Made by a program: the position numbers and the translations under genes. The notes beneath the pieces are model-generated. The model ran no database searches. It worked only from the letters and a program-made list of their open reading frames with translations, and was not told the DNA's origin. This document shows positions 5,435 through 29,200 of a DNA stretch of 31,209 nucleotides, one piece after another. Numbering within the stretch: the first letter of the stretch is position 1; every line of letters starts with the position of its first letter. The stretch is taken from positions 1 through 31,209 of the IMG/VR virus record IMGVR_UViG_3300029719_000311; one strand, written 5' to 3'. The stretch comes from a virus. Taxonomy: Duplodnaviria > Heunggongvirae > Uroviricota > Caudoviricetes.

Positions 5435-6109
5435 TTAGGCTTTGATTTTGTATCTTCTTGGTTTTCCTGAGAAAATCACTGTACCAATTATAGAGCAATT
5501 ACCGTTGATCTTAATGTAAGGCTCAGGCCAGTTTGGGTTTAACGCTTTGAGATAACGCTGTGTCCCATCTTCTATCAACCTTTTGAAGGTGGTTTCGCCT
5601 GTATCGTGCATCAATGCAATAACGTCGTCACCGTGGCAGGCAGGTACTTCAGGATCGACAAAAATCATGTCTCCCGGGCGGTACTCATCAATCATTGAAT
5701 CACCTATCACCCGCAAGATATAAGTCATTTCCCCACAGGGTACAGGGCAGGGATACGTTTCTGCTGTGCTCAAATCAACCTCAGAATATCCAACTTCTTT
5801 CCATGCTCCGGCCTGTACCCATGATATGACAGGGACTAATGTGATTTGTTTATTAGTGATTGAAACATCAGGTTTTTTTGTGATGTTCGTTGTCTGGTGT
5901 TCTTGATCGAGCCATCCGACAGGCAGGTCGAAACATTTTTCGATGTGTCGTGCCATGCTGTCACCGATATTTTTAGTAGCACCATCTCCCATAAACCTGC
6001 TGGTCTGGGTTGGCTCGCGATCAATCATAGTGGCAAAGGAAGAATTCCCGCCAACACCATCTCTCAGTTTTCTGGCGTTAGACCGCCGGATGTCATGGAT
6101 TGTTTTCAT
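5435..6109 (-). CDS. Phage repressor, cI/C2-like (N-terminal HTH, C-terminal S24 LexA-type peptidase domain)
   Basis: C-terminal ...VIGDSMIDEYRPGDMIFVDPE... (S24 GDSM serine motif) plus a downstream Lys; divergent from cro-like gene with palindromic operators between them. Confidence 0.85.
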   Translation of the reverse strand: MKTIHDIRRSNARKLRDGVGGNSSFATMIDREPTQTSRFMGDGATKNIGDSMARHIEKCFDLPVGWLDQEHQTTNITKKPDVSITNKQITLVPVISWVQAGAWKEVGYSEVDLSTAETYPCPVPCGEMTYILRVIGDSMIDEYRPGDMIFVDPEVPACHGDDVIALMHDTGETTFKRLIEDGTQRYLKALNPNWPEPYIKINGNCSIIGTVIFSGKPRRYKIKA

Positions 6110-6199: not shown

Positions 6200-6400
6200 A
6201 TGAAAGCGTATTGGGACTCTTTAACCAAAGAACAGCAGGGCGAGTTGGCCGGAAAAGTTGGCTCAACACCTGGCTACTTACGGCTGGTTTTCAATGGCTA
6301 TAAAAAAGCCAGTTTTGTGCTGGCTAAAAAACTTGAGCAATGCACGTCAGGTGCAATTACGAAATCTGACTTAAGACCGGATATCTATCCGAAAGATTAG
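6200..6400 (+). CDS. Cro-like HTH regulator (66 aa)
   Basis: ATG preceded by GGAGG; MKAYWDSLTKEQQGELAGKVGSTPGYLRLVFNG... HTH-like; divergent from repressor. Confidence 0.7.
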   Translation: MKAYWDSLTKEQQGELAGKVGSTPGYLRLVFNGYKKASFVLAKKLEQCTSGAITKSDLRPDIYPKD

Positions 6401-6431
6401 CAGAACACTTTCAATTTTTAACCACAGAACG

Positions 6432-6995
6432 ATGAGGCTAACCGTGGGTAAGCATCACTGGAAAATAGAAAAACAGCCTGAGTGGTACGTGAAAGCTGTC
6501 AGAAAAACTATCGCGGCGTTGCCGGGTGGTTACGCTGAAGCGGCTGACTGGCTCGATGTAACAGAAAACGCTTTATTCAACCGCCTTCGTGCAGATGGCG
6601 ATCAGATTTTCCCGCTGGGATGGGCAATGGTTTTACAGCGTGCTGGTGGCACTCACTTCATTGCTGATGCTGTGGCGCAGTCTGCAAATGGCGTCTTTGT
6701 GTCTCTTCCTGACGTCGAGGATGTGGACAACGCCGATATCAACCAACGCCTGCTGGAAGTCATTGAACAGATCGGCAGTTATTCAAAACAGATTCGTTCA
6801 GCAATTGAAGACGGTGTAGTGGAACCGCATGAGAAGACAGCAATTAACGATGAGCTGTACCTCTCAATTTCGAAGCTGCAGGAGCATGCAGCACTGGTCT
6901 ACAAAATCTTTTGCGTTTCAGAAAGTAGTGACGCCCGCGAGTGTGCAGCTCCGGGCGCCGTGGCGTGTCGTGACTGTGGAGAAACTAACGCATGA
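6432..6995 (+). CDS. Putative phage regulatory protein (CII/YdaT-like position), 187 aa
   Basis: ORF immediately downstream of cro-like gene; assignment by position only. Confidence 0.4.
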
Positions 6996-7330
6996 ACAGT
7001 TTAACAACACACTACCGTCGCTCGCAACTGATTGCGCTTCCTATACCGGGTGGAAAAGCGAAGGTGGAGTATTGCTATGCAGTAAATGTACCAGGTGACA
7101 GGGAAATTGTAACCCACAGCTTTGCAGAGTGGGCTGTGGGTGATTTCAACCGGCAGAAGGAGACAGTCCTTTGCGACAAGTTAACCGCTGGTTCAAAGAT
7201 CACTACGGAGTGCCCGTCAGAGTCATTCGTTGGGAGCCGGAAACACAACGGGTTATCTACCTCCGTGAAGGCTATGAGCATGAGTGCTTCAGCCCGCTCG
7301 AACAGTTTCGTTGTAAATTCAGGGAAATAG
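6992..7330 (+). CDS. Hypothetical protein, possibly frameshifted (112 aa as called)
   Basis: ATG overlaps upstream stop (ATGA) with GGAGA RBS; N-terminal half protein-like, C-terminal half low-complexity; an alternative frame 7171..7350 reads as a compact protein (see findings). Confidence 0.3.
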
Positions 7331-7339
7331 AGGTCGGTC

Positions 7340-8281
7340 ATGAGCACTAAATTAACCGGCTATGTATGGGATGGTTGCGCTGCGTCAGGCATGAAATTAT
7401 CCAGCGTGGCAATTATGGCCCGCCTGGCTGATTTCAGTAATGACGAAGGTGTGTGCTGGCCATCAATTGAAACCATTGCCCGTCAGATTGGCGCGGGGAT
7501 GAGTACCGTCAGAACGGCTATCGCACGGCTGGAAGCAGAAGGCTGGTTAACGCGTAAGGCGCGTCGCCAGGGTAACCGCAATGCGTCGAATGTTTATCAG
7601 CTTAACGTTGCGAAGCTTCAGGCAGCGGCATTTTCTCAACTGTCAGATTCTGACCCGTCAAAATCTGACGCATCAAAATCTGACCCGTCAAAATTTGATG
7701 CGTCGAAATCTGGCAAAAAAGCGGGTTTTCACCCGTCAGAATCTGGCGGGGATCCGTCAGTAAAATCAAAACATGATCCGTCAGATAAAAAAACTTCTCG
7801 TCCGGACGCTTCGCAACCGGACACGCAGACGGCTGAACAGGAGTTTTTAACTCGCCATCCTGATGCGGTTGTATTCAGCCCTAAAAAGCGCCAGTGGGGA
7901 ACGCAGGATGATTTGACCTGCGCACAGTGGCTCTGGAAAAAAATCATCGCCCTGTACGAGCAGGCCGCCGAATGTGACGGCGAGGTGGTTCGTCCCAAAG
8001 AACCGAACTGGACAGCCTGGGCAAACGAAATTCGCCTGATGTGTGTGCAGGATGGTCGTACTCATAAACAAATCTGCGAGATGTACAGCCGCGTCAGTCG
8101 CGATCCGTTCTGGTGCCGTAACGTGCTCAGCCCGTCGAAGCTGCGGGAAAAATGGGATGAGCTTTCCCTGCGCTTATCGCCGTCCGTCAGCACGTACACC
8201 GAAAAACGCGAAGACCCGTACTTCAAAGCCAGTTACGACAACGTGGACTACAGCCAGATCCCGGCAGGATTCAGGGGGTGA
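7340..8281 (+). CDS. Replication initiation protein (lambda O-like role) with origin iterons inside the gene
   Basis: N-terminal winged-helix-like region; central DPSKSDASKSDPSKFDASKS repeats encoded by tandem 15-bp DNA repeats; position after cro/cII-like genes. Confidence 0.7.
   Translation: MSTKLTGYVWDGCAASGMKLSSVAIMARLADFSNDEGVCWPSIETIARQIGAGMSTVRTAIARLEAEGWLTRKARRQGNRNASNVYQLNVAKLQAAAFSQLSDSDPSKSDASKSDPSKFDASKSGKKAGFHPSESGGDPSVKSKHDPSDKKTSRPDASQPDTQTAEQEFLTRHPDAVVFSPKKRQWGTQDDLTCAQWLWKKIIALYEQAAECDGEVVRPKEPNWTAWANEIRLMCVQDGRTHKQICEMYSRVSRDPFWCRNVLSPSKLREKWDELSLRLSPSVSTYTEKREDPYFKASYDNVDYSQIPAGFRG
7640..7793. repeat. Candidate replication origin iterons (5 tandem 15-bp repeats plus 3 spaced copies) with adjacent A-rich tract
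   Basis: Repeats of CCGTCA(A/G)AATCTGA at 15-bp period 7640..7713, further copies at 7731, 7752 and 7777; within the replication initiator gene. Confidence 0.55.
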
Positions 8282-8772
8282 GCATGAGTCTTTTGAATGA
8301 CGTTCAGAAATTCATTGAAGCCCATCCGGGCTGTACTTCCGGAGATATTGCGGATGCTTTTGCCGGTTACTCACGGCAGCGCGTTCTGCAGTCAGCAAGC
8401 AAGTTACGTCAGAGTGGGCGTGTGGCTCACCGTTGTGAAGGAGATACACGCAGACATTTCCCGCGCCTGACTGAGAGAGCGCAGGAACCGGAACCACAAC
8501 CAGTTCGTGAAACCAGACCTGTGCGCAATTTCTATGTCGGCACTAACGATCCCCGTGTGATTTTGTGCCTGACCCGCCAGGCGGAAGAACTGGAGTCCAG
8601 GGGCTTATACCGTCGTGCTGCAACCGTGTGGATGGCGGCATTCCGTGAAAGCCACTCCCAGCCAGAACGAAACAATTTTCTGGCGCGTCGTGAGCGGTGC
8701 TTACGGAAAAGCAGCAAGCGCGCTGCATCGGGTGAAGAGTGGTATCTGTCAGGGAATTACGTGGGGGCTTAA
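8278..8772 (+). CDS. Hypothetical regulator (winged-helix N-terminus; PerC-like C-terminal region), 164 aa
   Basis: ATGA overlap with upstream gene; C-terminal ...EELESRGLYRRAATVWMAAF... resembles PerC-type prophage regulators from memory; low certainty. Confidence 0.4.
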   Translation: MSMSLLNDVQKFIEAHPGCTSGDIADAFAGYSRQRVLQSASKLRQSGRVAHRCEGDTRRHFPRLTERAQEPEPQPVRETRPVRNFYVGTNDPRVILCLTRQAEELESRGLYRRAATVWMAAFRESHSQPERNNFLARRERCLRKSSKRAASGEEWYLSGNYVGA

Positions 8773-9425
8773 TGAGTAATAAATATTGCCAGGCGCTGGT
8801 GGAACTGCGGAACAAACCAGCCCATGAACTGAAGGAAGTGGGCGATCAGTGGCGCACGCCGGACAACATTTTCTGGGGAATTAACACCCTGTTTGGCCCG
8901 TTTGTTCTGGATCTGTTCACTGACGGTGATAACGCCAAATGTGCCGCGTATTACACGGCGGAAGACAACGCGCTGGCGCATTACTGGTCAGAACGTCTTG
9001 CGGAGCTTAAAGGTGCTGCCTTTGGTAATCCCCCGTACAGCCGCGCCAGTCAGCATGAGGGGCAATACATCACCGGCATGCGTTACATCATGAAACATGC
9101 CAGTGCCATGCGTGATAAGGGCGGGCGCTATGTTTTCCTGATCAAAGCTGCCACCAGCGAAGTGTGGTGGCCGGAAGATGCAGATCATATTGCTTTTATT
9201 CGCGGGCGTATTGGTTTTGAACTGCCTGTCTGGTTTATCCCGAAAGACGAGAAGCAGGTACCGACAGGAGCTTTTTTCGCTGGTGCTATTGCTGTTTTTG
9301 ACAAGACCTGGAAGGGACCGGCAATCAGCTACATCGGGCGCGATGAACTTGAGGCATGTGGTGAGGCGTTTCTGGCGCAGGTTCGCCAGCAGGCGGAAAA
9401 ACTGGTCAGGGAGATGGCGGCATGA
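8772..9425 (+). CDS. Phage DNA N6-adenine methyltransferase (Dam-like)
   Basis: Catalytic motif NPPY in ...AAFGNPPYS...; start at ATG overlapping upstream stop (TAATG), giving MSNKYCQALVELRNK... Confidence 0.8.
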   Translation: MSNKYCQALVELRNKPAHELKEVGDQWRTPDNIFWGINTLFGPFVLDLFTDGDNAKCAAYYTAEDNALAHYWSERLAELKGAAFGNPPYSRASQHEGQYITGMRYIMKHASAMRDKGGRYVFLIKAATSEVWWPEDADHIAFIRGRIGFELPVWFIPKDEKQVPTGAFFAGAIAVFDKTWKGPAISYIGRDELEACGEAFLAQVRQQAEKLVREMAA

Positions 9426-9748
9426 CGACGTTAACTCAATGCCAGCAGCAGGTGCTGGATATGCTGATTTCTTATCAGAAAGAACGTGGCTTCCCGCCAA
9501 CCAATCAGGAGGTGGCAACCATGCTGGGATACCGTTCGGTGAATGCAGCGGTGGAGCATCTTCGCGCACTGGAGAAAAAAGGCGTCATCACGATAAAGCG
9601 TGGCGTGGCCCGGGGGATAACGCTTCATACCGCGGTGAAGGACGACGACAGCGAGGCGGTCGGGATTATCCGCGCACTGCTTGCCGGTGAGGAAAACGCA
9701 AGGCTGCGTGCAACCCACTGGTTACATGAGAGGGACCTGAAAGTATGA
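9422..9748 (+). CDS. LexA N-terminal DNA-binding-domain-like protein lacking the peptidase domain (108 aa)
   Basis: LTQCQQQVLDMLISYQKERGFPPTNQEVATMLGYRSVNAAVEHLRALEKKGVITIKRGVARGITL closely parallels the LexA N-terminal winged HTH; no S24 Ser/Lys region. Confidence 0.7.
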   Translation: MTTLTQCQQQVLDMLISYQKERGFPPTNQEVATMLGYRSVNAAVEHLRALEKKGVITIKRGVARGITLHTAVKDDDSEAVGIIRALLAGEENARLRATHWLHERDLKV

Positions 9749-10134
9749 AGCTGATCCTGCCTTTTCCGCCCAGCGTGAACACGTACTGGCGACACCCCAA
9801 CAAAGGGGCGTTTGCTGGTAAGAGCCTGATAAGCGCGGCGGGGCGAAAATTCCAGAGCGCGGCGTGCGCAGCAATAGTTGAGCAGTTACGTCGTCTGCCG
9901 AAACCAACGTCGGCACCTGCTTCAGTGGAGATCGTGTTGTTTCCTCCGGATAACCGGATCCGCGATCTGGACAACTATAACAAGGCGCTGTTTGACGCCC
10001 TGACCCACGCGGGTGTGTGGGAGGACGACAGTCAGGTGAAAAGAATGCTGGTGGAGTGGGGACCGGTTATCCCGGAAGGGAAGGTCGAGATCACTATCAG
10101 TAAGTACGAGAAAACGGCGGGTGCAGCCGCCTGA
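9745..10134 (+). CDS. rusA: Holliday junction resolvase RusA
   Basis: LPFPPSVNTYWRH..., ...RDLDNYNKALFDALTHAGVWEDDSQV... match RusA conserved blocks; ATGA coupling. Confidence 0.85.
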   Translation: MKLILPFPPSVNTYWRHPNKGAFAGKSLISAAGRKFQSAACAAIVEQLRRLPKPTSAPASVEIVLFPPDNRIRDLDNYNKALFDALTHAGVWEDDSQVKRMLVEWGPVIPEGKVEITISKYEKTAGAAA

Positions 10135-10153
10135 TCAAGAGGAGAAACGAAGT

Positions 10154-10951
10154 ATGAATAATCTGATGGTCATTGATGGTATTGAAGTTCGTCGTGATGC
10201 TTATGGTCGTTACAGCCTGAACGATCTGCACAGGGCTGCTGGTTCTCTGGATAAGCATAAGCCCGCATTCTGGCTCCGCAATGAGCAAACTGAACGCTTA
10301 ATAAGCGAGTTGCAGATTTGCAACTCGGTCAATATAGCGCCAGTTAATGTCATTCGTGGTGGAAATAACCAGGGAACGTATGTCTGCAAGGAACTGGTGT
10401 ATGCCTATGCAATGTGGATTAGCCCGTCATTCCATCTGAAGGTGATCCGTACTTTTGACATGGTAACCAGCATACCGGAAAAATTATCCGGGCAGGCTGC
10501 TGACAAGATGCAGGCTGGTGTGATTCTGCTGGACTTTATGCGTCGGGAGTTAAATCTGTCTAACTCATCTGTGCTTGGGGCCTGTCAGAAACTCCAGGAG
10601 GCTGTTGGCTTACCGAATTTGGCACCGCGCTATGCCATTGATGCTCCTGCTGATGCACTCGATGGCTCAAGCCGCCCTACGCTATCATTGAGTGCACTGC
10701 TGAAGCAGTATGGTATCCGCCTTACGGCTAATCAGGCATATCACCAGATGGTGAAGCTGGGGATCGTCGAGCAGCGCGAACGATACAGCCGTACCACGAT
10801 TAACAACATCAAAAAATTCTGGTCGCTGACAGCGAAAGGCTGCATGTTCGGCAAGAACATCACCAGTCCCGCAAATCCGCGCGAGACGCAGCCGCATTTC
10901 TTCGAATCCCGATTCCCTGAGCTGTTAAAGCTGCTCGATATCGTTCATTGA
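10154..10951 (+). CDS. KilA-N domain protein (antirepressor/Bro-like), 265 aa
   Basis: Start at ATG after AAGAGGAGAA; N-terminus MNNLMVIDGIEVRRDAYGRYSLNDLHRAAG... typical of KilA-N domains. Confidence 0.6.
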   Translation: MNNLMVIDGIEVRRDAYGRYSLNDLHRAAGSLDKHKPAFWLRNEQTERLISELQICNSVNIAPVNVIRGGNNQGTYVCKELVYAYAMWISPSFHLKVIRTFDMVTSIPEKLSGQAADKMQAGVILLDFMRRELNLSNSSVLGACQKLQEAVGLPNLAPRYAIDAPADALDGSSRPTLSLSALLKQYGIRLTANQAYHQMVKLGIVEQRERYSRTTINNIKKFWSLTAKGCMFGKNITSPANPRETQPHFFESRFPELLKLLDIVH

Positions 10952-10952
10952 G

Positions 10953-12755
10953 GTGACCGTGAGAGCACTACTGACCCCTGAAATTGCCCCGCGTATGGGG
11001 ATCGTATTGTTCAGACCAGGTTCAGAGCTGATGCCCCTGTTTATGCAGGGGCGTGTCCTGCTGGAGCCTGAGCCGGAACGTTATTCATCTTTCGCCAGTG
11101 GTGCTGTTCCGGCGGCATCACAACCGCTGGCGGATGATCCTGCCGTTCGGGCCGTGTTCCGCAATGAGGCAGTGATCCGTCGTGCTGGTGGCGTGGAATG
11201 TCTTGAAAGCTGGTTACTTCGTGAAAAAGGCTGCCAGTGGCCTCATTCCGACTGGCACAGCGAGAACATGACCACAATGCGACACGCGCCGGGTGCAATC
11301 CGTCTGTGCTGGCACTGCGATAACCAGCTGCGCGATCAGTTCACGGAACGGCTGGAATCAATGGCAACGGATAACTGTGCCCGCTGGGTGTTGTCTGTTG
11401 TGCGTCGGGATCTCGGTTTTGATGACAGTCACGTTGTGACAATGCCGGAACTGTGCTGGTGGCTGGTTCGTAATGACCTGGCGGGAGCCTTGCCGGAAAG
11501 TGCAGCCCGTAAGGCACTGAGATTACCGAAGCCTGTTGTGCCGTCTGTCACCCGGGAAAGTGACCTTGTTCCTTCGGTTCCTGCCACCAGCATCATCCAG
11601 GATAAAGTGAAAAAGGTGCTGGCGCTGAAAGTGGATCCGGAGTCGCCGGAGTCTTTTATGTTACGCCCAAAACGTCGCCGCTGGGTTAACGAAAAGTATC
11701 TGGATTTTTTCAAAGGCGAGATAGGGAAAACCCATCTGGCTCAGGAGCTGTGGACGCAGATTGATAACGGTCAGCTTGCGCCTGACCTGGCTGAAATCAG
11801 GACATCCATTACGGATGTCAGCAATGAAATCACACAGACCGTCAATAAGAAACTGGAAGACCAGAGTGCAGCGATCCAGCAGATACAGAAGGTTCAGGTT
11901 GATACAAATAATAATCTGAACAGCATGTGGGCTGTGAAGCTGCAGCAGATGCAGGATGGACGCCTTTATATTGCGGGTATCGGTGCCGGTATTGAGAACA
12001 CCCCTGACGGCATGCAGAGTCAGGTGCTGCTGGCGGCGGACAGGATTGCGATGGTTAATCCTGCGAATGGCAACACAAAACCGATGTTTGTTGGTCAGGG
12101 CGATCAGATATTCATGAACGACGTGTTCCTGAAACGCCTGACGGCCCCCACCATTACCAGCGGTGGAAATCCACCGGCATTTTCCCTGACACCGGACGGA
12201 AAGCTGACCGCTAAAAATGCGGATATCAGTGGCAGTGTGAATGCGAACGCCGGGACGCTCAACAATGTCACGGTAAATGAAAACTGTACGATTAAGGGCA
12301 TGCTGGAGGCGACTCAGGTCAGAGGTGACTTCGTTAAAGCTGTATCCAAATCATTCCCGAAACAGGCTGGTACGTGGGGTAACACGGAAACACCAAACGG
12401 GACGGTTACAGTTACCATAAGCGATGATCATAACTTTGACCGTCAAATCATTATTCCGCCCATTATCTTTAACGGAATAGCGTATAGCGATCCGGGAAGT
12501 GGTAATAACCCGGGAGGTACAAGATACACGGGTTATGGTTTTGAAGTTCGCAAAAACGGTGTATTAATCGCATCCAGAGAAACTAAAGGGGCTATTCCCG
12601 GTAGCTACAGTGCGGTTATTGATATGCCGAGTGGCAGGGGAAGCGTCACTCTGGAGTTTAAGGTTTTCCATAAAGGCAATCAGTGGGCAGGTAATATCAC
12701 CGACTGTACGGTGATTGTGACCAAAAAAGCCGCTTCCGGCATCAGTATTCGTTGA
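10953..12755 (+). CDS. Chimeric ORF: N-terminal Cys/His-motif domain (DUF968-like early protein) fused to C-terminal tail-fibre J-like region
   Basis: GTG start adjacent to KilA-N stop; N-terminal about 280 aa contains CWHCDNQ; C-terminal about 300 aa is Gly/Thr/Asn-rich tail-fibre-like sequence; immediately followed by lom-stf-tfa as in the lambda J-lom-stf-tfa order. Confidence 0.55.
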   Translation: MTVRALLTPEIAPRMGIVLFRPGSELMPLFMQGRVLLEPEPERYSSFASGAVPAASQPLADDPAVRAVFRNEAVIRRAGGVECLESWLLREKGCQWPHSDWHSENMTTMRHAPGAIRLCWHCDNQLRDQFTERLESMATDNCARWVLSVVRRDLGFDDSHVVTMPELCWWLVRNDLAGALPESAARKALRLPKPVVPSVTRESDLVPSVPATSIIQDKVKKVLALKVDPESPESFMLRPKRRRWVNEKYLDFFKGEIGKTHLAQELWTQIDNGQLAPDLAEIRTSITDVSNEITQTVNKKLEDQSAAIQQIQKVQVDTNNNLNSMWAVKLQQMQDGRLYIAGIGAGIENTPDGMQSQVLLAADRIAMVNPANGNTKPMFVGQGDQIFMNDVFLKRLTAPTITSGGNPPAFSLTPDGKLTAKNADISGSVNANAGTLNNVTVNENCTIKGMLEATQVRGDFVKAVSKSFPKQAGTWGNTETPNGTVTVTISDDHNFDRQIIIPPIIFNGIAYSDPGSGNNPGGTRYTGYGFEVRKNGVLIASRETKGAIPGSYSAVIDMPSGRGSVTLEFKVFHKGNQWAGNITDCTVIVTKKAASGISIR

Positions 12756-12824
12756 AATTGTTATAACCCATATAAGGGCACCAGAAATGGTGCCTTTTTT
12801 ATTGCAGAAAAGCGAGAGGTAATT

Positions 12825-17024: not shown

Positions 17025-20000
17025 ATGGAACCCATATCAATTACAGTGGCAACTTATGTAGCAACTAAACTTATTGATCAATTCATCTCTCAAGAAGGAT
17101 ATGGTTGTATTAAGAAAGCATTATTCCCCCAAAAAAGATATGTGGATAGATTATATCAACTAATTGAAGAGACGGCAATTGAGTTTGAAGAAACATATCC
17201 AGTAGAAAGTGGAGCAATACCATTTTATCATTCCGAACCATTGTTTGAGATGTTGAATGAGCACATCTTTTTTAAAGAGTTCCCTGACAAAGAGATATTA
17301 TTAGACAAGTTCAAAGAATATCCAAGTATCACTCCCCCAACTCAACAACAACTCAGCCTTTTTTATGAGATGTTATCATTAAAAATCAATAATTGTTCGA
17401 AGTTAAAAAAGCTACATATCGAAGAAACGTATAAAGAAAAAATATTCGATATTAATGAAGAGCTCATTCAAGTCAAACTTATTTTACGGTCTATAGATGA
17501 GAAACTAACTTTTCACTTAAGTGATGATTGGTTAAATGAAAAAAATAGTCAAGCAATAGCTGACTTGGGAGGTCGATACACACCCGAACTCAACGTAAAG
17601 CTAGAAATAGCAGAGATATTTGATGGCCTCGGTAGAACTAATGATTTTTCTAAAATATTTTATTCGCATATAGATAGCTTTCTGGTCGCTGGAAAGAAAT
17701 TACATAGTTGCGATGTAATTTCCTCAGAATTATTTGAAATAAACCAGTCCTTAAAAGAAATTTCTGATATATATCAGGAGATTAATTTTTCTAAATTAGA
17801 TGAAATCCCTATAAATAAATTTAATAACTATGTTTCTAGCTGCCAGACAGCTATTGGCGGAGCGGTATCAATATTGTGGGAACTCCGAGAAAAGTCAGAG
17901 CAAGTAGGTGAAACCAAGCATTACAGTGATAAGTATTCATCTACTCTGCGAATGCTTCGGGAATTTGACTATGCGTGCAATGAATTACGTATATTCATTA
18001 ATTCAACAACAGTGAAGTTGGCTAACAACCCATTCTTACTTCTCGAAGGAAAAGCAGGAATTGGTAAGTCTCATTTACTGGCTGATGTGATTAAAAATCG
18101 AATTGCTTCTGGGTATCCTTCACTACTCATACTAGGGCAACAACTTACTTCAGATGAATCTCCATGGTCACAAATCTTCAAGAGATTACAGCTTAAAATC
18201 ACTTCTCGTGAATTCCTAGAAAAACTGAATTTATATGGCAAAAAAACAGGAAAAAGAGTCTTAGTTTTTATTGATGCTATTAATGAAGGTAATGGAAATA
18301 AATTCTGGAATGACAATATTAACAGTTTTGTCGATGAAATCAGATGCTTTGAATGGCTTGGTCTGATAATGTCAGTCAGAACAACATATAGAAATGTAAC
18401 AATTTCACATGAGAATGTTGTGCGAAATAATTTTGAAATTCATGAACATATTGGATTCCAGAACGTTGAGTTGGAAGCGGTTAGTCTATTTTATGATTAT
18501 TACAATATTGAGAGGCCTTCATCTCCTAACCTTAATCCAGAGTTTAAAAATCCTCTATTTCTTAAGTTATTGTGTGAAGGCATTAAGAAAAATGGTTTAA
18601 CCAAAGTGCCTGTTGGATTTAATGGGATTTCAAATATTTTTAACTTTTTAGTTGAAGGGGTAAATAAATCATTAGCATCGCCAAGAAAATATGCATTCGA
18701 TCCCAGTTTTCCTCTTGTTAAAGATGCTCTCAATGAAATCATAAAATTCAAATTAGAGATTGGTCGTAATAGTATTTCACTTAAAGATGCTCACTCAGTG
18801 GTTCAATCTGTAGTTAATGATTATGTTGCTGATAAAACCTTCCTCAGCGCCTTGATTGACGAAGGATTATTGACTAAAGGCATAGTGAGAAATGATGATA
18901 ATTCTACTGAGGAAGTAGTTTATGTGGCTTTTGAAAGGTTTGATGATCATTTAACTGTTAATTTTTTATTAAATGATGTTGAAAATATCGAAAGTGAATT
19001 TAAGCCTGATGGTCGTCTGAAAAAATATTTTCATGATGAATGTGATTTTTATATAAAATCGGGAATAGTAGAGGCGTTGTCTATTCAATTGCCAGAAAGG
19101 TATGAAAAAGAGCTTTATGAATTTCTGCCGGAGTTCAGCAATAATCTTAAATTACTAGAAGCCTTTATTGATAGCTTGATATGGCGCGATATTAAGGCTA
19201 TTGATTTCGAAAAAATTAGACCTTTCATCAATGAACATGTTTTTAAATTTAAAGATAGTTTTGATCATTTCCTCGAGGCAGTGATCTCTATTTCAGGTTT
19301 AGTTGGCCATCCCTTTAATGCTAATTTCTTGCATGATTGGCTAAAAGATTATTCTTTGGCAAATCGAGATTCGTTTTGGACTACAGAACTTAAATATAAA
19401 TATAGTGAAGACTCAGCATTTAGGCATCTAATCGATTGGGCATGGGCCAGAACAGATAAAAGCTTTGTTTCGGATGAGTCAATCGAGCTAGTTGCAACTA
19501 GTTTATGCTGGTTTTTAACTTCTAGTAACCGAGAACTTCGAGATTGCTCAACTAAGGCTTTAGTGAGTTTACTCGAGCCAAGAATTCCTGTATTGAGAAA
19601 AATAATTGATAAGTTTTATGGTGTAAATGATCCTTACGTTTGGGAAAGAATATTTGCAGTTGCATTAGGCTGTACATTGCGAACTGATAATATTAAAGAA
19701 CTAAAATATTTAGCCGAAACTGTTTACCAAAAGGTATTTTGTTCTAAGTATGTGTATCCAAATATATTACTTAGAGATTATGCTAGAGAGATTATTGAAT
19801 TTGCTAATCATCTTGGATTGGAACTTGAAAGCATTGAATTATCCAAGACTAGACCACCCTACAACAGCATTTGGCCTGACAAGATTCCTTCAAAAGAGGA
19901 ACTAGAGTCCCTTTATGATAAAGAACCTTATCGGGAACTCTGGAGCTCTATTATGGAAGATGGTGACTTTTCACGATATACTATTGGAACAAATTATAAT

Positions 20001-21479
20001 CATTCTGATTGGTCTGGTTGCAAGTTTAATGAAACCCCTGTTGACCGTAAGCAAGTTTTTAAAACTTTCAAATGTAAACTAACTGATCAACAAAAAGACT
20101 TGTATGATGCCACAGATCCTTTCATTTATGATGATAAATGCGAAGGAATTAAATTTGGTCGTGTGGTCGGTAGAAAATCACAGGAAGAAATAAAGGCGAG
20201 CAAGAAATTATTTAAGAATTCATTGTCATACGATCTGTTAAGTGAGTTTGAAAATGAAATAGAGCCATACCTGGATCATAATAATAATCTGCTGGAAACT
20301 GATAAACACTTTGATCTTCGACTAGCTCAACAATTTATATTCAATCGTGTTATAGAGCTTGGTTGGGATCCGGAGAAGCATGGTAATTTTGACCAACAAA
20401 TAGGAACTGGACGTGGACGTAGAGAGGCATTCCAAGAACGGATTGGTAAAAAATACCAATGGATTGCTTATTATGAATACATGGCAAGGCTAGCCGATAA
20501 TTTTACTCGTTTTGAAGGTTATGGTGACGAACGAAAGGAAAATCCATACCAAGGGCCATGGGAGCCTTACGTAAGAGATATAGATCCCACTATCTTACTT
20601 AAAGAAACTGGAACGAAAAAAATAAGCAATAAAGAAATGTGGTGGCTTAATGATGAAGTGTTTGATTGGACTTGCTCTAATGAAGACTGGGTTAAAAGTT
20701 CTACTACTATAACTAATTCATATGCTTTTATTGAAGTTAAAGATGATAATGGTGATGAATGGATAGTATTAGAAAGTCATCCATCATGGAAAGAACCAAA
20801 AATTATTGGAAACGATGATTGGGGGCACCCACGAAAAGAGGTTTGGTATCAGATCAGAAGTTATATCGTTAAAGTTGAAGAATTTGAAAATTTTAGATGT
20901 TGGGCAATAGCTCAAGACTTTATGGGCAGGTGGATGCCGGAATGTACTGATAGATACCAATTATTTAATAGGGAGTACTATTGGTCCGAAGCATTTAAGT
21001 CTTTTAAATCAGATTATTATGGTGGATCTGACTGGACTTCGGTAACAGACCGGGAGTCTGGAGCTAAGATAGCTGATGTTAGTGTCACTTCGATTAATTA
21101 TTTGTGGGAAGAGGAGTTCGACAAATCAAAAATAGAAACTTTGAATTTTTTGAAGCCTAGTAACTTAATCTTTGAAAAGATGGGATTAAAAAGTGGGGAA
21201 GTAGAGGGTAGCTTCAATGATGAAAATGGAACTATGGTTTGCTTTGCAGCTGAAGCTGTATATGCTTCAAAGCCGCATCTACTTGTTAAAAAAGAACCAT
21301 TTTTAACAATGTTAAGGGACAATGGTTTTGAAATCGTTTGGACATTATTAGGTGAAAAGGGCGTTATAGGGGGCTCACTCATATCAAGTCATCATTATGG
21401 TCGACAGGAGTTTAGTGGAGCATTTTATTATGAAGACAGTCAGCTAACAGGAAGTCATAAAACTAGCTTTACGAGATAA
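17025..21479 (+). CDS. Large P-loop NTPase with NACHT/STAND-like motifs (1484 aa); candidate antiphage defence protein
   Basis: Walker A GKAGIGKS (18048..18071), Walker B VLVFIDAINEG (18258..18290), downstream IMSVRTT sensor-1-like motif; about 330-aa N-terminal and about 1050-aa C-terminal helical extensions; low GC versus neighbours; located between tfa and attR. Confidence 0.6.
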   Translation: MEPISITVATYVATKLIDQFISQEGYGCIKKALFPQKRYVDRLYQLIEETAIEFEETYPVESGAIPFYHSEPLFEMLNEHIFFKEFPDKEILLDKFKEYPSITPPTQQQLSLFYEMLSLKINNCSKLKKLHIEETYKEKIFDINEELIQVKLILRSIDEKLTFHLSDDWLNEKNSQAIADLGGRYTPELNVKLEIAEIFDGLGRTNDFSKIFYSHIDSFLVAGKKLHSCDVISSELFEINQSLKEISDIYQEINFSKLDEIPINKFNNYVSSCQTAIGGAVSILWELREKSEQVGETKHYSDKYSSTLRMLREFDYACNELRIFINSTTVKLANNPFLLLEGKAGIGKSHLLADVIKNRIASGYPSLLILGQQLTSDESPWSQIFKRLQLKITSREFLEKLNLYGKKTGKRVLVFIDAINEGNGNKFWNDNINSFVDEIRCFEWLGLIMSVRTTYRNVTISHENVVRNNFEIHEHIGFQNVELEAVSLFYDYYNIERPSSPNLNPEFKNPLFLKLLCEGIKKNGLTKVPVGFNGISNIFNFLVEGVNKSLASPRKYAFDPSFPLVKDALNEIIKFKLEIGRNSISLKDAHSVVQSVVNDYVADKTFLSALIDEGLLTKGIVRNDDNSTEEVVYVAFERFDDHLTVNFLLNDVENIESEFKPDGRLKKYFHDECDFYIKSGIVEALSIQLPERYEKELYEFLPEFSNNLKLLEAFIDSLIWRDIKAIDFEKIRPFINEHVFKFKDSFDHFLEAVISISGLVGHPFNANFLHDWLKDYSLANRDSFWTTELKYKYSEDSAFRHLIDWAWARTDKSFVSDESIELVATSLCWFLTSSNRELRDCSTKALVSLLEPRIPVLRKIIDKFYGVNDPYVWERIFAVALGCTLRTDNIKELKYLAETVYQKVFCSKYVYPNILLRDYAREIIEFANHLGLELESIELSKTRPPYNSIWPDKIPSKEELESLYDKEPYRELWSSIMEDGDFSRYTIGTNYNHSDWSGCKFNETPVDRKQVFKTFKCKLTDQQKDLYDATDPFIYDDKCEGIKFGRVVGRKSQEEIKASKKLFKNSLSYDLLSEFENEIEPYLDHNNNLLETDKHFDLRLAQQFIFNRVIELGWDPEKHGNFDQQIGTGRGRREAFQERIGKKYQWIAYYEYMARLADNFTRFEGYGDERKENPYQGPWEPYVRDIDPTILLKETGTKKISNKEMWWLNDEVFDWTCSNEDWVKSSTTITNSYAFIEVKDDNGDEWIVLESHPSWKEPKIIGNDDWGHPRKEVWYQIRSYIVKVEEFENFRCWAIAQDFMGRWMPECTDRYQLFNREYYWSEAFKSFKSDYYGGSDWTSVTDRESGAKIADVSVTSINYLWEEEFDKSKIETLNFLKPSNLIFEKMGLKSGEVEGSFNDENGTMVCFAAEAVYASKPHLLVKKEPFLTMLRDNGFEIVWTLLGEKGVIGGSLISSHHYGRQEFSGAFYYEDSQLTGSHKTSFTR

Positions 21480-21909: not shown

Positions 21910-22072
21910 CACCTAGTTTTCCCAAGTCAACCCACATCAACAAAATCATTTAAAAACATATATATTACGTTGTTTTCATACGTTTGAGGTCAACCCTTGT
22001 CTCTTGAAATCAACACGCGGTTGGGGGCACAATCAGGGGCATGTTCTGTTCGATCTAGGAAATGTGCCCCCA

Positions 22073-23263
22073 ATGATGCTGAATGCCCGCAAGGTTGAAG
22101 CTGCGAAAGGAAAAGAGAAGAGCTACAAGCTGTTTGATGGAGGTGGCCTATACCTTCAGGTCGAACCTAATGGCTCGCGTTACTGGCGTATGAAATACCG
22201 TTTTGCTGGTAAAGAGAAACGATTGTCCTTTGGTGTTTATCCAACAGTCACACTTGCTGATGCCAGACAAAAACGAGAAGACGCGAAGAAACTACTCGCA
22301 GCAGGTGAAGATCCCGGCGAAGTCAAAAAAGCCAAAAAGCAGGCTTTAAATGCAGCGAGTGAGACACTTAACCCATTCAGAGAAGTGGCGTTAGAGTGGC
22401 ACAAAATGAAATCACCCAAATGGTCTGAGGGCTATGCTTCCGACATCATTGAGGCATTCGAGAAAGACATTTTCCCGCATATTGGGCACAGACCTATAGC
22501 TGATATTCAGCCCCTTGAACTGCTTGAAGTTCTGAGGTTGATAGAAGCTCGAGGCGCTATGGAGAAAGCGAAGAAAGTCCGTCAGCGATGCGGTGAAGTT
22601 TTTCGCTATGCCATCGTAACGGGTAGGGCAATCTACAATCCGGCACCGGATCTTGCCAGTGCGATGCAAGGACATGAAGCAGTCCACTATCCATTCCTCA
22701 AAGCCAACGAACTACCGGAGTTCTTTAATGCCCTTAATTCTTATTCAGGAAGTCCAATTGTATTGTTGGGGGCGCATTTACTTATCCTGACAGGTCTACG
22801 AACTGGAGAACTACGAGCAGGTGAGTGGCGAGAGGTGGATTTTGATAATGCGGTGTGGGAGATCCCAAAAGAACGTATGAAAATGCGTAGGAGCCATATT
22901 GTCCCGTTGTCAAAACAAGCATTATCCCATCTCAAAAGTTTGAAAGAACTAACTGGGAACTACCCGCTGATGTTCCCTGGACGCAACGATCCCAGCAAAT
23001 TTATGAGTGAAGCAAGCATTAATCAGGTGTTTAAACGTATTGGATATGCAGGGCGTGTTACGGGGCATGGTTTCAGGCATACGATGAGTACAATCCTACA
23101 TGAGAAAGGATTTAACAGCGCTTGGATTGAAACCCAGCTTGCTCATTCGGACAAAAACTCTATTCGTGGAATTTATAACCATGCCCAATATCTCGAAGGG
23201 AGAAGAGAAATGATGCAATGGTATGCTAATTATTTATCTGAGCAAATTGGTACTCATAAATGA
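22073..23263 (+). CDS. Tyrosine integrase, P4-type
   Basis: ...KEKSYKLFDGGGLYLQVEPNGSRYWRMKYRFAGKEKRLSFGVYPTVTLADARQKREDAKKLL... N-terminal arm-binding pattern of P4-family integrases; C-terminal ...GHGFRHTMSTILHE... catalytic region; true start probably ATG at 22073/22076 rather than ORF start 22004. Confidence 0.9.
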   Translation: MMLNARKVEAAKGKEKSYKLFDGGGLYLQVEPNGSRYWRMKYRFAGKEKRLSFGVYPTVTLADARQKREDAKKLLAAGEDPGEVKKAKKQALNAASETLNPFREVALEWHKMKSPKWSEGYASDIIEAFEKDIFPHIGHRPIADIQPLELLEVLRLIEARGAMEKAKKVRQRCGEVFRYAIVTGRAIYNPAPDLASAMQGHEAVHYPFLKANELPEFFNALNSYSGSPIVLLGAHLLILTGLRTGELRAGEWREVDFDNAVWEIPKERMKMRRSHIVPLSKQALSHLKSLKELTGNYPLMFPGRNDPSKFMSEASINQVFKRIGYAGRVTGHGFRHTMSTILHEKGFNSAWIETQLAHSDKNSIRGIYNHAQYLEGRREMMQWYANYLSEQIGTHK

Positions 23264-24084
23264 ATATTTTAAAAATTAATAATACTGATTCTCTGCTCAG
23301 AGATTACTACCAGTTGGATGAAGCTTCAGAAAAAATTGGTTGTAGTGAAAAGGATATACTCTGGTTTGCCAGAGAACGAGATGTAGAGCTATGCATGGAA
23401 TTCCATGATGATGAGTATGATGTTTCATGTGGTTTGAAGATTGATGGTCAAATAGATGAGTTCTTATCTAATCTGAAATATTTACCACGAGATAGAAATG
23501 GCAATATTATGTTGTCAGACTTAAGTTCTATAAGAATCCCTGATGAAGATAATTTAATTGATAAAAATGGTTTTATTCGATGCTTCATATCCGGTTTATG
23601 GGCTGTTGATTATGAATATAAAGATCTGTTAGTTAAGCATGAGGGGCAACCGGATTCCTGGCCTATTCATTTTCTACTGGCGGGTACGCCTAATATAAAT
23701 TGTAAGGTAATTCTTTATGTAAATTATGATGAAAAAGAAAATTATTATCTTTTTGAGGTTTTGTGGATTACAAAGGTACAGATTCAAAAATTCATTGATA
23801 TAGTCTTATGCGAACAAAAGCGGATAAAAAACGCCAATAAATATAAATCACAATCTGAGGCGCAAAAACAAAAACATGCTGTTCCTCGAGCTGAAATACT
23901 CATGGCTATTATTTCGCTCTATCATCGTGATATGAGGCTAAGAAGAGAGAGTCCAGCAGCGATAGCTGATTATCTTTTTCAACATGCCAGTGAGTTCTGG
24001 CCTAAGACCGGAGAACCGCCTTTGAGCTATGATACTGTTGTTAGTTTGCTACGTAGTTGCATGAAAAACATTAAGTTTAACTAA
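23260..24084 (+). CDS. Hypothetical low-GC cargo protein (274 aa), translationally coupled to integrase
   Basis: ATGA overlap with int stop; strongly AT-rich relative to int; no recognisable motifs. Confidence 0.5.
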   Translation: MNILKINNTDSLLRDYYQLDEASEKIGCSEKDILWFARERDVELCMEFHDDEYDVSCGLKIDGQIDEFLSNLKYLPRDRNGNIMLSDLSSIRIPDEDNLIDKNGFIRCFISGLWAVDYEYKDLLVKHEGQPDSWPIHFLLAGTPNINCKVILYVNYDEKENYYLFEVLWITKVQIQKFIDIVLCEQKRIKNANKYKSQSEAQKQKHAVPRAEILMAIISLYHRDMRLRRESPAAIADYLFQHASEFWPKTGEPPLSYDTVVSLLRSCMKNIKFN

Positions 24085-27922: not shown

Positions 27923-29200
27923 ATGAACCGTCAGCCGTTTACTTCAGCAGCACTTAAACGAAACTTAAGTGAAAGTGAGAAGGCTTATTATTTTAAAAAA
28001 AATAATGTTGCTGAGTTAGAATCATTAATTAGTGATGCCGTTTTAATTGCTAATGAGAATTTTCGCTCTGGTGTGAGTGTAAAGAAACTAAATATTAAGG
28101 GACGCTGCGTTTACACTGCTTCATGTTTGAAGGAAAAAATAATACTTAGACATTGCAATGCAAATTTAAAATGCCTTGAATCGCTTCGTCCCAAACAACG
28201 AAATACAATAATTAGTGAGCTTAAAATTTATTTGGAAGAAGGTACTCCATTCAAAATATATCGTTTGGATATAAAGTCTTTCTTTGAATCAATTGATTTA
28301 CCGCAGCTTTTTCAGCTCTTACATAACGAAACACGACTGTCTAGACATACAAAAAATTTGCTAGAATGGTATCTTAAATCGTGTGAAAGGCTTCACTCTT
28401 CGAAAGGATTACCTAGAGGGTTAGAAATTAGTCCTATGTTATCAGAATTGTACTTGGCACAATTTGATAATAGTATTCATAGGCATCCAGAAGTATTTTA
28501 TTATTCAAGATTTGTAGATGATATGGTAATCGTTTCAAGTGGTTGTGAATGTGAAGCGTCCTTTATGGAATTTATACAAGATGTATTACCAAAGGGATTG
28601 GCTTTAAATAAAAATAAATTAAAAATATCTCCATGCATACCAAAGAGAAGTAAGGGTTTAAATAAACAGGATAAATTGCTTCATGAATTTGACTTTCTAG
28701 GGTACTCGTTTTCTATAATAGACACACCTTTGAGCAAAGATGGTGAGATTAATAGCTGTTACAGAAAGGTTGTTGTTAATTTATCTAAATCTCGCCTGAA
28801 GAAAATTAAAACAAGAATAGCTAGGTCTTTCTACTCTTATCATATTAATGGTGATTTTAAACTATTGCTAGACAGGATTTCTTTTTTGACTAGTAACAGG
28901 GATTTAAATCGCAAAATAAAATCGTTAAGTTCTTTAGAAAAAAGCAAGATAAGTACAGGTATTTATTACAGTAATGCGAAGTTAGATGTTGACTCCATAT
29001 CCCTAAAAAAATTAGATGACTTTTTGCTATATTGTGTGCAATCTAATACTGGGCGTTTGAATAGTGTTGCAAAAAAACCTTTTAATTTGAAGCAAAAAAA
29101 AGAACTGCTAAGAAATAGTTTTAGAAAAGGCTTTGTGGATAGAGTATATAGAAAGTATAACTTTAAGCGCTATACTGAGATTACAAAAATATGGTTATAA
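27923..29200 (+). CDS. Reverse transcriptase 1 (425 aa), defence-associated RT (UG/Abi-like; DRT3 component by inference)
   Basis: Canonical RT motifs: YRLDIKSFFESID (motif 2), LPRGLEISPMLSELYL (motif 4), FVDD catalytic box at 28511..28522 (motif 5), FDFLGYSF (motif 7); very low GC. Confidence 0.85.
   Translation: MNRQPFTSAALKRNLSESEKAYYFKKNNVAELESLISDAVLIANENFRSGVSVKKLNIKGRCVYTASCLKEKIILRHCNANLKCLESLRPKQRNTIISELKIYLEEGTPFKIYRLDIKSFFESIDLPQLFQLLHNETRLSRHTKNLLEWYLKSCERLHSSKGLPRGLEISPMLSELYLAQFDNSIHRHPEVFYYSRFVDDMVIVSSGCECEASFMEFIQDVLPKGLALNKNKLKISPCIPKRSKGLNKQDKLLHEFDFLGYSFSIIDTPLSKDGEINSCYRKVVVNLSKSRLKKIKTRIARSFYSYHINGDFKLLLDRISFLTSNRDLNRKIKSLSSLEKSKISTGIYYSNAKLDVDSISLKKLDDFLLYCVQSNTGRLNSVAKKPFNLKQKKELLRNSFRKGFVDRVYRKYNFKRYTEITKIWL

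Follow-up and report, generated by a model that had tools for sequence, protein, structure and literature searches.

The N-terminal domain of Escherichia coli LexA (PDB 1LEA, 3JSO) is the closest described counterpart of the protein considered here. Its DNA binding is uncoupled from RecA*-stimulated self-cleavage in non-inducible LexA mutants such as G85D and S119A, crystallised as 1JHF and 1JHH, and in the LexA 1-84 fragment; the mutants are laboratory-made, and the fragment is a short-lived breakdown product of the host protein. Among phages, gp6 of the Bacillus thuringiensis tectivirus GIL01 is a truncated LexA homologue for which binding to a non-SOS palindrome and activation of the late promoter P3 have been demonstrated experimentally (PMC6182141). 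Here, analysis of a window of 31,209 nucleotides (the whole stretch examined, positions 1 to 31,209 of IMG/VR record IMGVR_UViG_3300029719_000311, Caudoviricetes) revealed a phage-encoded protein of 108 amino acids, for which the label LexN is used, that is a bona fide LexA-type winged-helix domain followed by a short linker and a conserved two-helix tail, without a peptidase domain. Its gene belongs to the nin-type early-right region of a defective lambdoid prophage, flanked there by dam and rusA. LexN, known here from sequence and a structural model, is thus proposed to show the same uncoupling as the LexA mutants and fragment, but it is the product of a natural, conserved phage gene and has its own C-terminal module. 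Like gp6, it is a phage LexA DNA-binding domain without the cleavage domain that is encoded in an early operon; gp6 differs in being only 66 amino acids long and in having no helical tail. The two could not be aligned by BLASTP at E<=100, which argues that they are independent truncations or captures of LexA, that of gp6 being from a Gram-positive LexA. The features of the gene and its product are as follows.

9422..9748, + strand: LexN open reading frame, complete from ATG to TGA, 108 codons (open reading frame listing and sequence).
9422..9625, + strand: winged helix-turn-helix, residues 1-68, with helices 6-22, 28-35, and 40-52 and strands 56-58 and 66-68 (AlphaFold model, 3JSO match, and alignment).
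9539..9577, + strand: recognition helix, residues 40-52, VNAAVEHLRALEK (alignments and the contact list of PMC3091678).
9683..9691, + strand: Ala88-Gly89-Glu90, aligned to the LexA cleavage site Ala84-Gly85-Glu86 (BLASTP and HMMER).
9644..9730, + strand: C-terminal helical hairpin, helices 75-88 and 93-103, family-specific, a presumed dimerisation element in place of the LexA S24 domain.

Several comparisons placed the first two-thirds of LexN within the LexA DNA-binding family. RefSeq contains the same protein as WP_000210155.1 (“LexA family transcriptional regulator”), and the DNA of LexN is 100% identical to the gene in enterotoxigenic E. coli (ETEC) H10407 and in many further genomes. Residues 1-65 span all 65 positions of the Pfam profile LexA_DNA_bind (PF01726), scoring 69 bits (cutoff 23.7; E=2.9e-19), so that LexN is a member above the gathering threshold over the full domain, and the runner-up families, HTH_Crp_2 (18.7 bits) and Rrf2, both stayed under their own cutoffs. 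BLASTP aligned residues 1-90 with E. coli LexA at 43% identity and without a gap to residue 70, and the top PDB sequence matches were all LexA. An AlphaFold2 model, built from 24 family sequences and with a mean predicted local distance difference test score (pLDDT) of 84, superposed on LexA of the LexA-DNA complex 3JSO with a root mean square deviation (rmsd) of 1.0 Å over 67-69 residues at 50% identity (Foldseek). The margin of 69 over 18.7 bits together with this structural fit ruled out a chance open reading frame or a member of another winged-helix family. The earlier note on this DNA had described a prophage-encoded reading frame of this position and length and had aligned its N-terminal ~70 residues by eye with the LexA winged helix; coordinates, length, prophage setting, and alignment were all borne out, and the profile comparison that it had proposed as a check turned up no closer unrelated family.

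The likeness to LexA stops short of the catalytic domain. No Peptidase_S24 match was found in LexN by Pfam, although the same tool does pick up the S24 domain in the neighbouring CI-like protein, and the chain ends at residue 108, so there is no Ser119/Lys156 dyad, as had been noted before. Consistent with this, the LexA equivalog model TIGR00498 of NCBIfam aligned to LexN at profile positions 1-91 of 203 only, with 70.6 bits against a cutoff of 110.95, which leaves LexN outside that family. PHROG 362, in contrast to TIGR00498, matched the full length of the protein (residues 1-108 on profile positions 1-106 of 106; 198.5 bits, E=3.8e-59). Among the PADLOC defence profiles, no membership was found, the sole match (18 bits) being to the winged helix-turn-helix part of a CARF model. 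Beyond the missing S24 domain and Ser/Lys dyad, LexN differs from LexA in having Val at position 44, in its unrelated two-helix C-terminal hairpin, and in being a phage early-operon gene rather than a lexA locus. LexN is almost certainly a non-cleavable protein with a LexA-type DNA-binding fold and, being without an autoprotease, should be insensitive to RecA*-stimulated self-cleavage.

One apparent exception to this picture lies in the tail. The earlier note had given the Ala-Gly cleavage site as absent, which was mistaken: Ala88-Gly89-Glu90 occupies the position of LexA Ala84-Gly85-Glu86, and the TIGR00498 alignment runs through position 91, past the motif. The conclusion drawn from that supposed absence, that the protein does not cleave itself, nevertheless stands on other grounds. 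Relatives of LexN were collected from viral and genome collections as 183 prophage loci in five clades of 40-50% mutual identity. At the position of Ala88-Gly89, close relatives have Ala-Asn (Citrobacter) or Val-Gly (Salmonella), and sister clades have Glu-Arg, Thr-Arg, Ser-Gly, Asp-Asp, or Ala-Cys; in the AlphaFold model the pair forms the end of a predicted alpha-helix rather than part of a strand or loop. The conserved Ala-Gly self-cleavage site in a strand-loop region that marks LexA is therefore not what LexN has. Because the motif varies among relatives, ends a helix in the model, and has no catalytic domain in cis, we do not regard it as a cleavage site; cleavage there is unlikely, and the tripeptide is probably a vestige of full-length LexA ancestry. 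The motif might instead be a true site that is cut in trans by RecA*-activated LexA, CI, or UmuD-type peptidases, making LexN a damage-sensitive repressor or a decoy substrate. Its alignment with the LexA site, the S24 repressor encoded by the same prophage, and the reported intermolecular cleavage of LexA speak for such a role, but cleavage in trans is inefficient, and the sequence variation and predicted helicity of the motif tell against it here as well, so that we consider it extremely improbable.

LexA dimerises through its C-terminal domain, and many small winged-helix repressors dimerise via C-terminal helices. In LexN, the place of that domain is taken by the helical hairpin, whose two helices were modelled with a pLDDT of ~87-89 behind a short low-confidence linker. 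Its near-invariant positions (I82, R84, L86, L87, A88, E90, E91, A93, R96, A97, W100, L101, E103, and R104) make it as conserved as the DNA-binding domain, and its hydrophobic pattern is kept in relatives at 40-50% identity. Among 72 distinct gene sequences of a sister clade, the ratio of nonsynonymous to synonymous substitution rates (dN/dS) was 0.21 over codons 1-70 and nearly the same, 0.20, over the tail. The tail is under purifying selection; its family-wide conservation and the dN/dS values ruled out a decaying remnant. No part of LexA matched the tail by Foldseek. Weak whole-chain Foldseek matches of LexN (template modelling score ~0.5) were to Rv1846c (2G9W), MepR, and MntR; repressors of the BlaI/MecI, MarR/MepR, and MntR types likewise combine a winged helix-turn-helix with C-terminal helices, but they show no sequence kinship, the winged helix of LexN is specifically of LexA type, and the likeness of the tails is architectural only (rmsd 8-10 Å). 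Since the dimerising domain of LexA is missing and small winged-helix repressors dimerise through such helices, the modelled hairpin is probably a substitute dimerisation module.

The same observations bear on the suggestion, made in the earlier note, that the protein heterodimerises with host LexA. With the LexA-dimerising domain gone and an unrelated hairpin in its stead, such pairing is unlikely. A more elaborate form of the idea, in which LexN acts as a dominant-negative or poison partner that forms mixed dimers with LexA or competes with it without repressing, and thereby enhances SOS and prophage induction, could appeal to the high similarity of the two DNA-binding domains and to the fact that isolated LexA N-terminal domains are known to co-occupy operators. 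It is nonetheless very improbable, given that the LexA dimer interface is the very domain absent from LexN, that the tail has no counterpart in LexA, and that occupancy of operators would repress rather than derepress.

The reading that we tentatively rank first is that LexN, unable to cleave itself, acts as a LexA surrogate that is insensitive to RecA* and is produced by the early rightward operon. Its transcription from pR, the early rightward promoter, would begin only once the S24-type CI repressor has been inactivated, i.e., upon SOS induction or infection; the helical tail would give the dimerisation that LexA draws from its C-terminal domain; the dimer would bind LexA-like, CTGT-containing operators; and the uncleavable protein would restore repression at SOS-box promoters vacated as host LexA is destroyed. 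Candidate targets are the SOS genes of the host, genes under LexA control on co-resident prophages or colicin plasmids, and the SOS boxes of related phages. Judged from the residues involved, binding of SOS boxes by LexN is plausible. LexA contacts DNA through Ser39, Asn41, Ala42, Glu44, and Glu45 (PMC3091678), and four of these five (Ser39, just before the recognition helix, Asn41, Ala42, and Glu45) are retained in LexN, whose model also fits the DNA-bound LexA domain at 1.0 Å. In addition, near-identical copies of the gene are kept beside different immunity regions and different Q genes in the window, ETEC H10407, and phage mEp460; a constant target, such as one of the host’s, would fit this better than a target inside those mosaic modules.

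Palindromes of the form CTGT-Nx-ACAG with spacers of 0-16 were counted around the 183 related genes in ~2 Mb of related prophage DNA. The SOS spacing, N8, was represented by 78 sites, compared with 5-21 for the other spacers except N6 and N15; only N8 was enriched across clades, the N6 and N15 enrichments being clade-specific repeats, one of them within the coding sequence of the LexN-type gene itself. Most N8 sites had TA flanks and AT-rich spacers and were textbook SOS boxes, e.g., TACTGTTTATTTATACAGTA. In the P0139 clade, an SOS box lies 0.44-1.5 kb upstream of the LexN-type gene in 27 of 34 loci, with a DinI-like gene in between in 18 of those 27. The arrangement was seen across IMG/VR contigs L157-L190 (e.g., L169, 4209-5327, and L157, 4507-5408) as a box-headed unit, many with a DinI-like gene, then a conserved open reading frame of 82-101 codons, then the LexN-type gene. 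In L169 the order is a strong terminator, a promoter-like TTGACC-N17-TATACT overlapped by the SOS box, the dinI-like gene, a 101-codon open reading frame, and the LexN-type gene; in L157 it is a strong terminator, a promoter-like TTGCAA-N17-AATAAT, the SOS box, an 82-codon open reading frame, and the LexN-type gene. No strong terminator was found between the box and the LexN-type gene in either. This box-headed unit of the nin region looks LexA-regulated, and the LexN-type gene of the P0139 clade is very probably a member of the LexA regulon. DinI dampens the co-protease activity of RecA, so the association with DinI points to SOS modulation. These data support an SOS connection at the level of the family; they say nothing of what the protein binds and have no direct bearing on the copy in the window.

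Other observations weigh against a LexA surrogate. The fifth LexA contact, Glu44, is Val44 in LexN and is Glu in no family member, and some members of the DinI-linked subclade have lost Glu45. With another dimerisation module, the spacing of the half-sites may also differ. In the window itself no perfect SOS core was found, the best score being 12.4, compared with 13-27 for real boxes, on a position-weight matrix built from SOS boxes; none of sixteen one-mismatch core matches in the window was an AT-rich box. The linkage to an SOS box is confined to one of the five clades and was seen in 0 of ~150 loci in the others. Finally, GIL01 gp6, the sole characterised phage truncated LexA, has altered specificity and activates transcription (PMC6182141).

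These points lead to the second reading in our ranking, for which the loss of Glu44 and the gp6 precedent are the chief arguments: that LexN is a gp6-like regulator, a captured LexA fold whose specificity has drifted off the SOS box and that activates or represses a phage promoter or times late genes rather than controlling host SOS. That gp6 binds GaCACA..TGTGaC and activates the late promoter P3, that many phage groups have stand-alone LexA-domain proteins, and that in 167 of 171 loci DUF968 and Q follow a LexN-type gene a few genes downstream are in keeping with such a role. On the other side, no conserved non-SOS palindrome was found across clades among CTGT/ACAG spacers 0-16 around the 183 genes, where N6 and N15 reflect local repeats; there is no intergenic room for an operator in 7340-12755 of the window; the gene travels with different immunity and Q modules; and most base-contact residues are still LexA-like. 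We regard this role as doubtful, though one to be taken seriously beside the LexA surrogate.

LexA operators were also encountered elsewhere in related prophages, and carriers of the LexN gene often hold several of them. The CI-like repressor gene of ETEC H10407 (L001, NC_017633.1, 8444-8463), mEp460 (L002, 31970-31989), and a Shigella prophage (L003) contains a perfect SOS box, which reads TACTGTATATAAAAACAGTA on the coding strand. This box encodes N-T-V-Y-K-N-S in the linker between the helix-turn-helix and S24 domains and could act as a LexA-controlled internal promoter or a roadblock; the cI gene of the window is of a different immunity type and does not have this internal box. In mEp460, two strong SOS boxes (23255-23302) precede a phage DinI-like gene, and a further one (41021-41040) lies at the start of a DNA methylase gene.

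Within the window, the genes around LexN are the following.

5435..6109, - strand: CI-like repressor with an S24 peptidase domain (Pfam PF00717, E=1.5e-26).
8739..9425, + strand: phage Dam methyltransferase, upstream of LexN (Pfam PF05869, E=7.4e-45; RefSeq start at window position 8772).
9745..10134, + strand: RusA Holliday-junction resolvase, downstream of LexN (Pfam PF05866).
10121..10951, + strand: KilA-N domain protein in a variable antirepressor-type slot (Pfam PF04383, E=3e-26).
10953..12755, + strand: in-frame fusion of DUF968 (HNH-like) with the C-terminal part of tail-tip protein J (Pfam).

The ATG of LexN overlaps the stop codon of the upstream Dam gene (gcATGAcg), and its own stop codon overlaps the start of rusA (gtATGAag). 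These ATGA overlaps at both ends indicate that LexN is packed in an operon and probably translationally coupled. Neither a promoter-like site on the + strand nor a strong terminator was found from ~6300 to 12774, so that the early rightward promoter, once CI has been inactivated, is the most likely source of LexN expression; the CI-like repressor at 5435..6109 presumably controls the rightward early operon that contains it. The gene order of the window is proA, tyrosine integrase, CI-like repressor, CII-like, replication gene, PerC-like, Dam, LexN, RusA, KilA-N, the DUF968-J fusion, Lom, and tail-fibre genes. In the intact layout of ETEC H10407, DUF968 is followed by Q and then by lysis, terminase, and head genes, whereas the reading frame at 10953..12755 passes from DUF968 (amino acids 162-254, profile positions 2-97 of 171) directly to Phage_Tail_Tip (amino acids 307-435) and Ig_GpJ_C (amino acids 464-599). 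Because of this in-frame fusion, set against the intact order, the window prophage is a defective deletion remnant that has lost Q, the lysis and head genes, and most of the tail genes.

To the right of the remnant, the window holds genes of a different kind. A 1484-residue reading frame at 17025-21479, just beyond the prophage and without a Pfam match, is the antiviral STAND NTPase Avs2 (PADLOC PDLC02164, 1752 bits), and a pair of reverse transcriptases at 27923-29200 and 29191-31209, the second running off the window end, matches Drt3a (435 bits) and Drt3b (676 bits) of a type 3 defence-associated reverse transcriptase system. Between them, at 22004-23263, is a second integrase of P4 type. 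Together these look like a defence island.

LexN is neither rare nor newly recognised. The 327-bp gene occurs in 2233 of 5426 complete E. coli genomes at any coverage and in 2223 of them at >=80% coverage, mostly at 95-100% identity, and a nucleotide search found it in 50 phage records, including SfV (orf42), SfIV, mEp460, and Shiga toxin 2c (Stx2c)-converting phages; a protein search added cdtI, SfII, mEp390, Stx2a_WGPS2, and phages of Klebsiella and Hafnia. The PHROG 362 proteins of SfV, SfII, SfIV, cdtI, mEp460, mEp390, and the Stx2a/Stx2c phages belong to the same family, and at the DNA level the window copy shares 97.6-100% identity with these phage and E. coli genes, from which nothing sets it apart but the loss of Q through most tail genes from its host prophage. 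RefSeq calls the protein a “LexA family transcriptional regulator,” PHROG 362 is annotated “transcriptional repressor,” and many further phage groups have annotated LexA-domain proteins that stand alone. A LexA domain without a protease is thus already standard annotation for this gene, which roughly two of every five E. coli genomes carry, and the observation of the earlier note is not a new one. Full-text literature searches found no functional study of LexN; two candidate mentions concerned CI repressors instead. The present analysis adds the Ala-Gly pair that aligns yet is not conserved, the helical tail and its conservation, the fixed position of the gene ahead of DUF968 and Q, and the linkage to a LexA box and DinI in one sister clade. 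Separately, phage records LR595868.1, LR595862.1, KF030445.1, and MT225100.1 call the 108-residue protein “SOS-response repressor and protease LexA” or “LexA repressor,” an over-call for a protein with no protease domain.

An exhaustive profile-free search returned 4611 proteins at E<=0.001, including short proteins with the same tail; most are presumably LexA itself, lengths being known for the 150 listed. In a representative search, four further proteins (P0130, P0131, P0150, and P0156) proved to be single chains of 141-222 amino acids with two tandem LexA winged-helix domains, and these appear to be covalent pseudo-dimers that need no dimerisation domain. Across the loci of the five clades, the conserved order is PerC-like, methyltransferase, LexN-type gene, RusA, KilA-N or Rha/ANT, DUF968, and Q, with neighbours in the following numbers.

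DUF968 at <=3 kb downstream on the same strand: 167 of 171 loci, the most constant downstream neighbour.
RusA directly downstream of the LexN-type gene: 126 of 171 loci.
Antirepressor-type gene (KilA-N or Rha/ANT): 114 of 171 loci.
Methyltransferase upstream (Dam, MT-A70, or C5, three unrelated families): 127 of 170 loci.

The LexN-type gene thus belongs stably to a DNA-metabolism block of the nin type, and these counts, with three methyltransferase families upstream and RusA in 126 of 171 loci, tie it to no single methyltransferase and to no strict dependence on RusA. The near-constant DUF968 linkage, the frequent translational coupling to RusA, and a tail that could serve as a protein-protein interface might suggest that LexN is an accessory DNA-binding subunit or regulator of the adjacent DNA-processing enzymes (the DUF968 HNH-like nuclease, RusA, and the methyltransferases) rather than an SOS transcription factor. 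However, the upstream slot holds any of the three methyltransferase families or none, and RusA is missing from most loci of one clade, so that neither can be indispensable as a partner; a shared gene order in lambdoid nin regions is often a product of modular inheritance rather than a sign of function, and the conservation of the recognition helix is typical of sequence-specific binding. We consider such a role improbable.

With the LexA surrogate still ranked first, its wider form would have LexN switched on as the prophage repressor falls, re-closing SOS-box promoters and so shortening or reshaping the SOS response in the ~40% of E. coli strains that carry the gene, including carriers of Stx2a and Stx2c phages, and in one sister clade forming with DinI a LexA-controlled anti-SOS module. 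This extension is somewhat more speculative, and we put it forward as an unlikely but consequential scenario: a reshaped response would touch mutagenesis, filamentation, colicin release, and the induction of rival prophages that use LexA-controlled antirepressors. Should LexN bind SOS boxes, the response of E. coli, Shigella, and Shiga toxin-producing strains to DNA-damaging antibiotics would be changed by a very widespread prophage gene, with possible effects on the duration of SOS, mutagenesis, the induction of Shiga toxin phages, and competition among co-resident prophages. Should it instead have a target of its own, LexN would, next to GIL01 gp6, be a second independent instance in which LexA’s DNA-binding domain is reused by phages as a private regulator.

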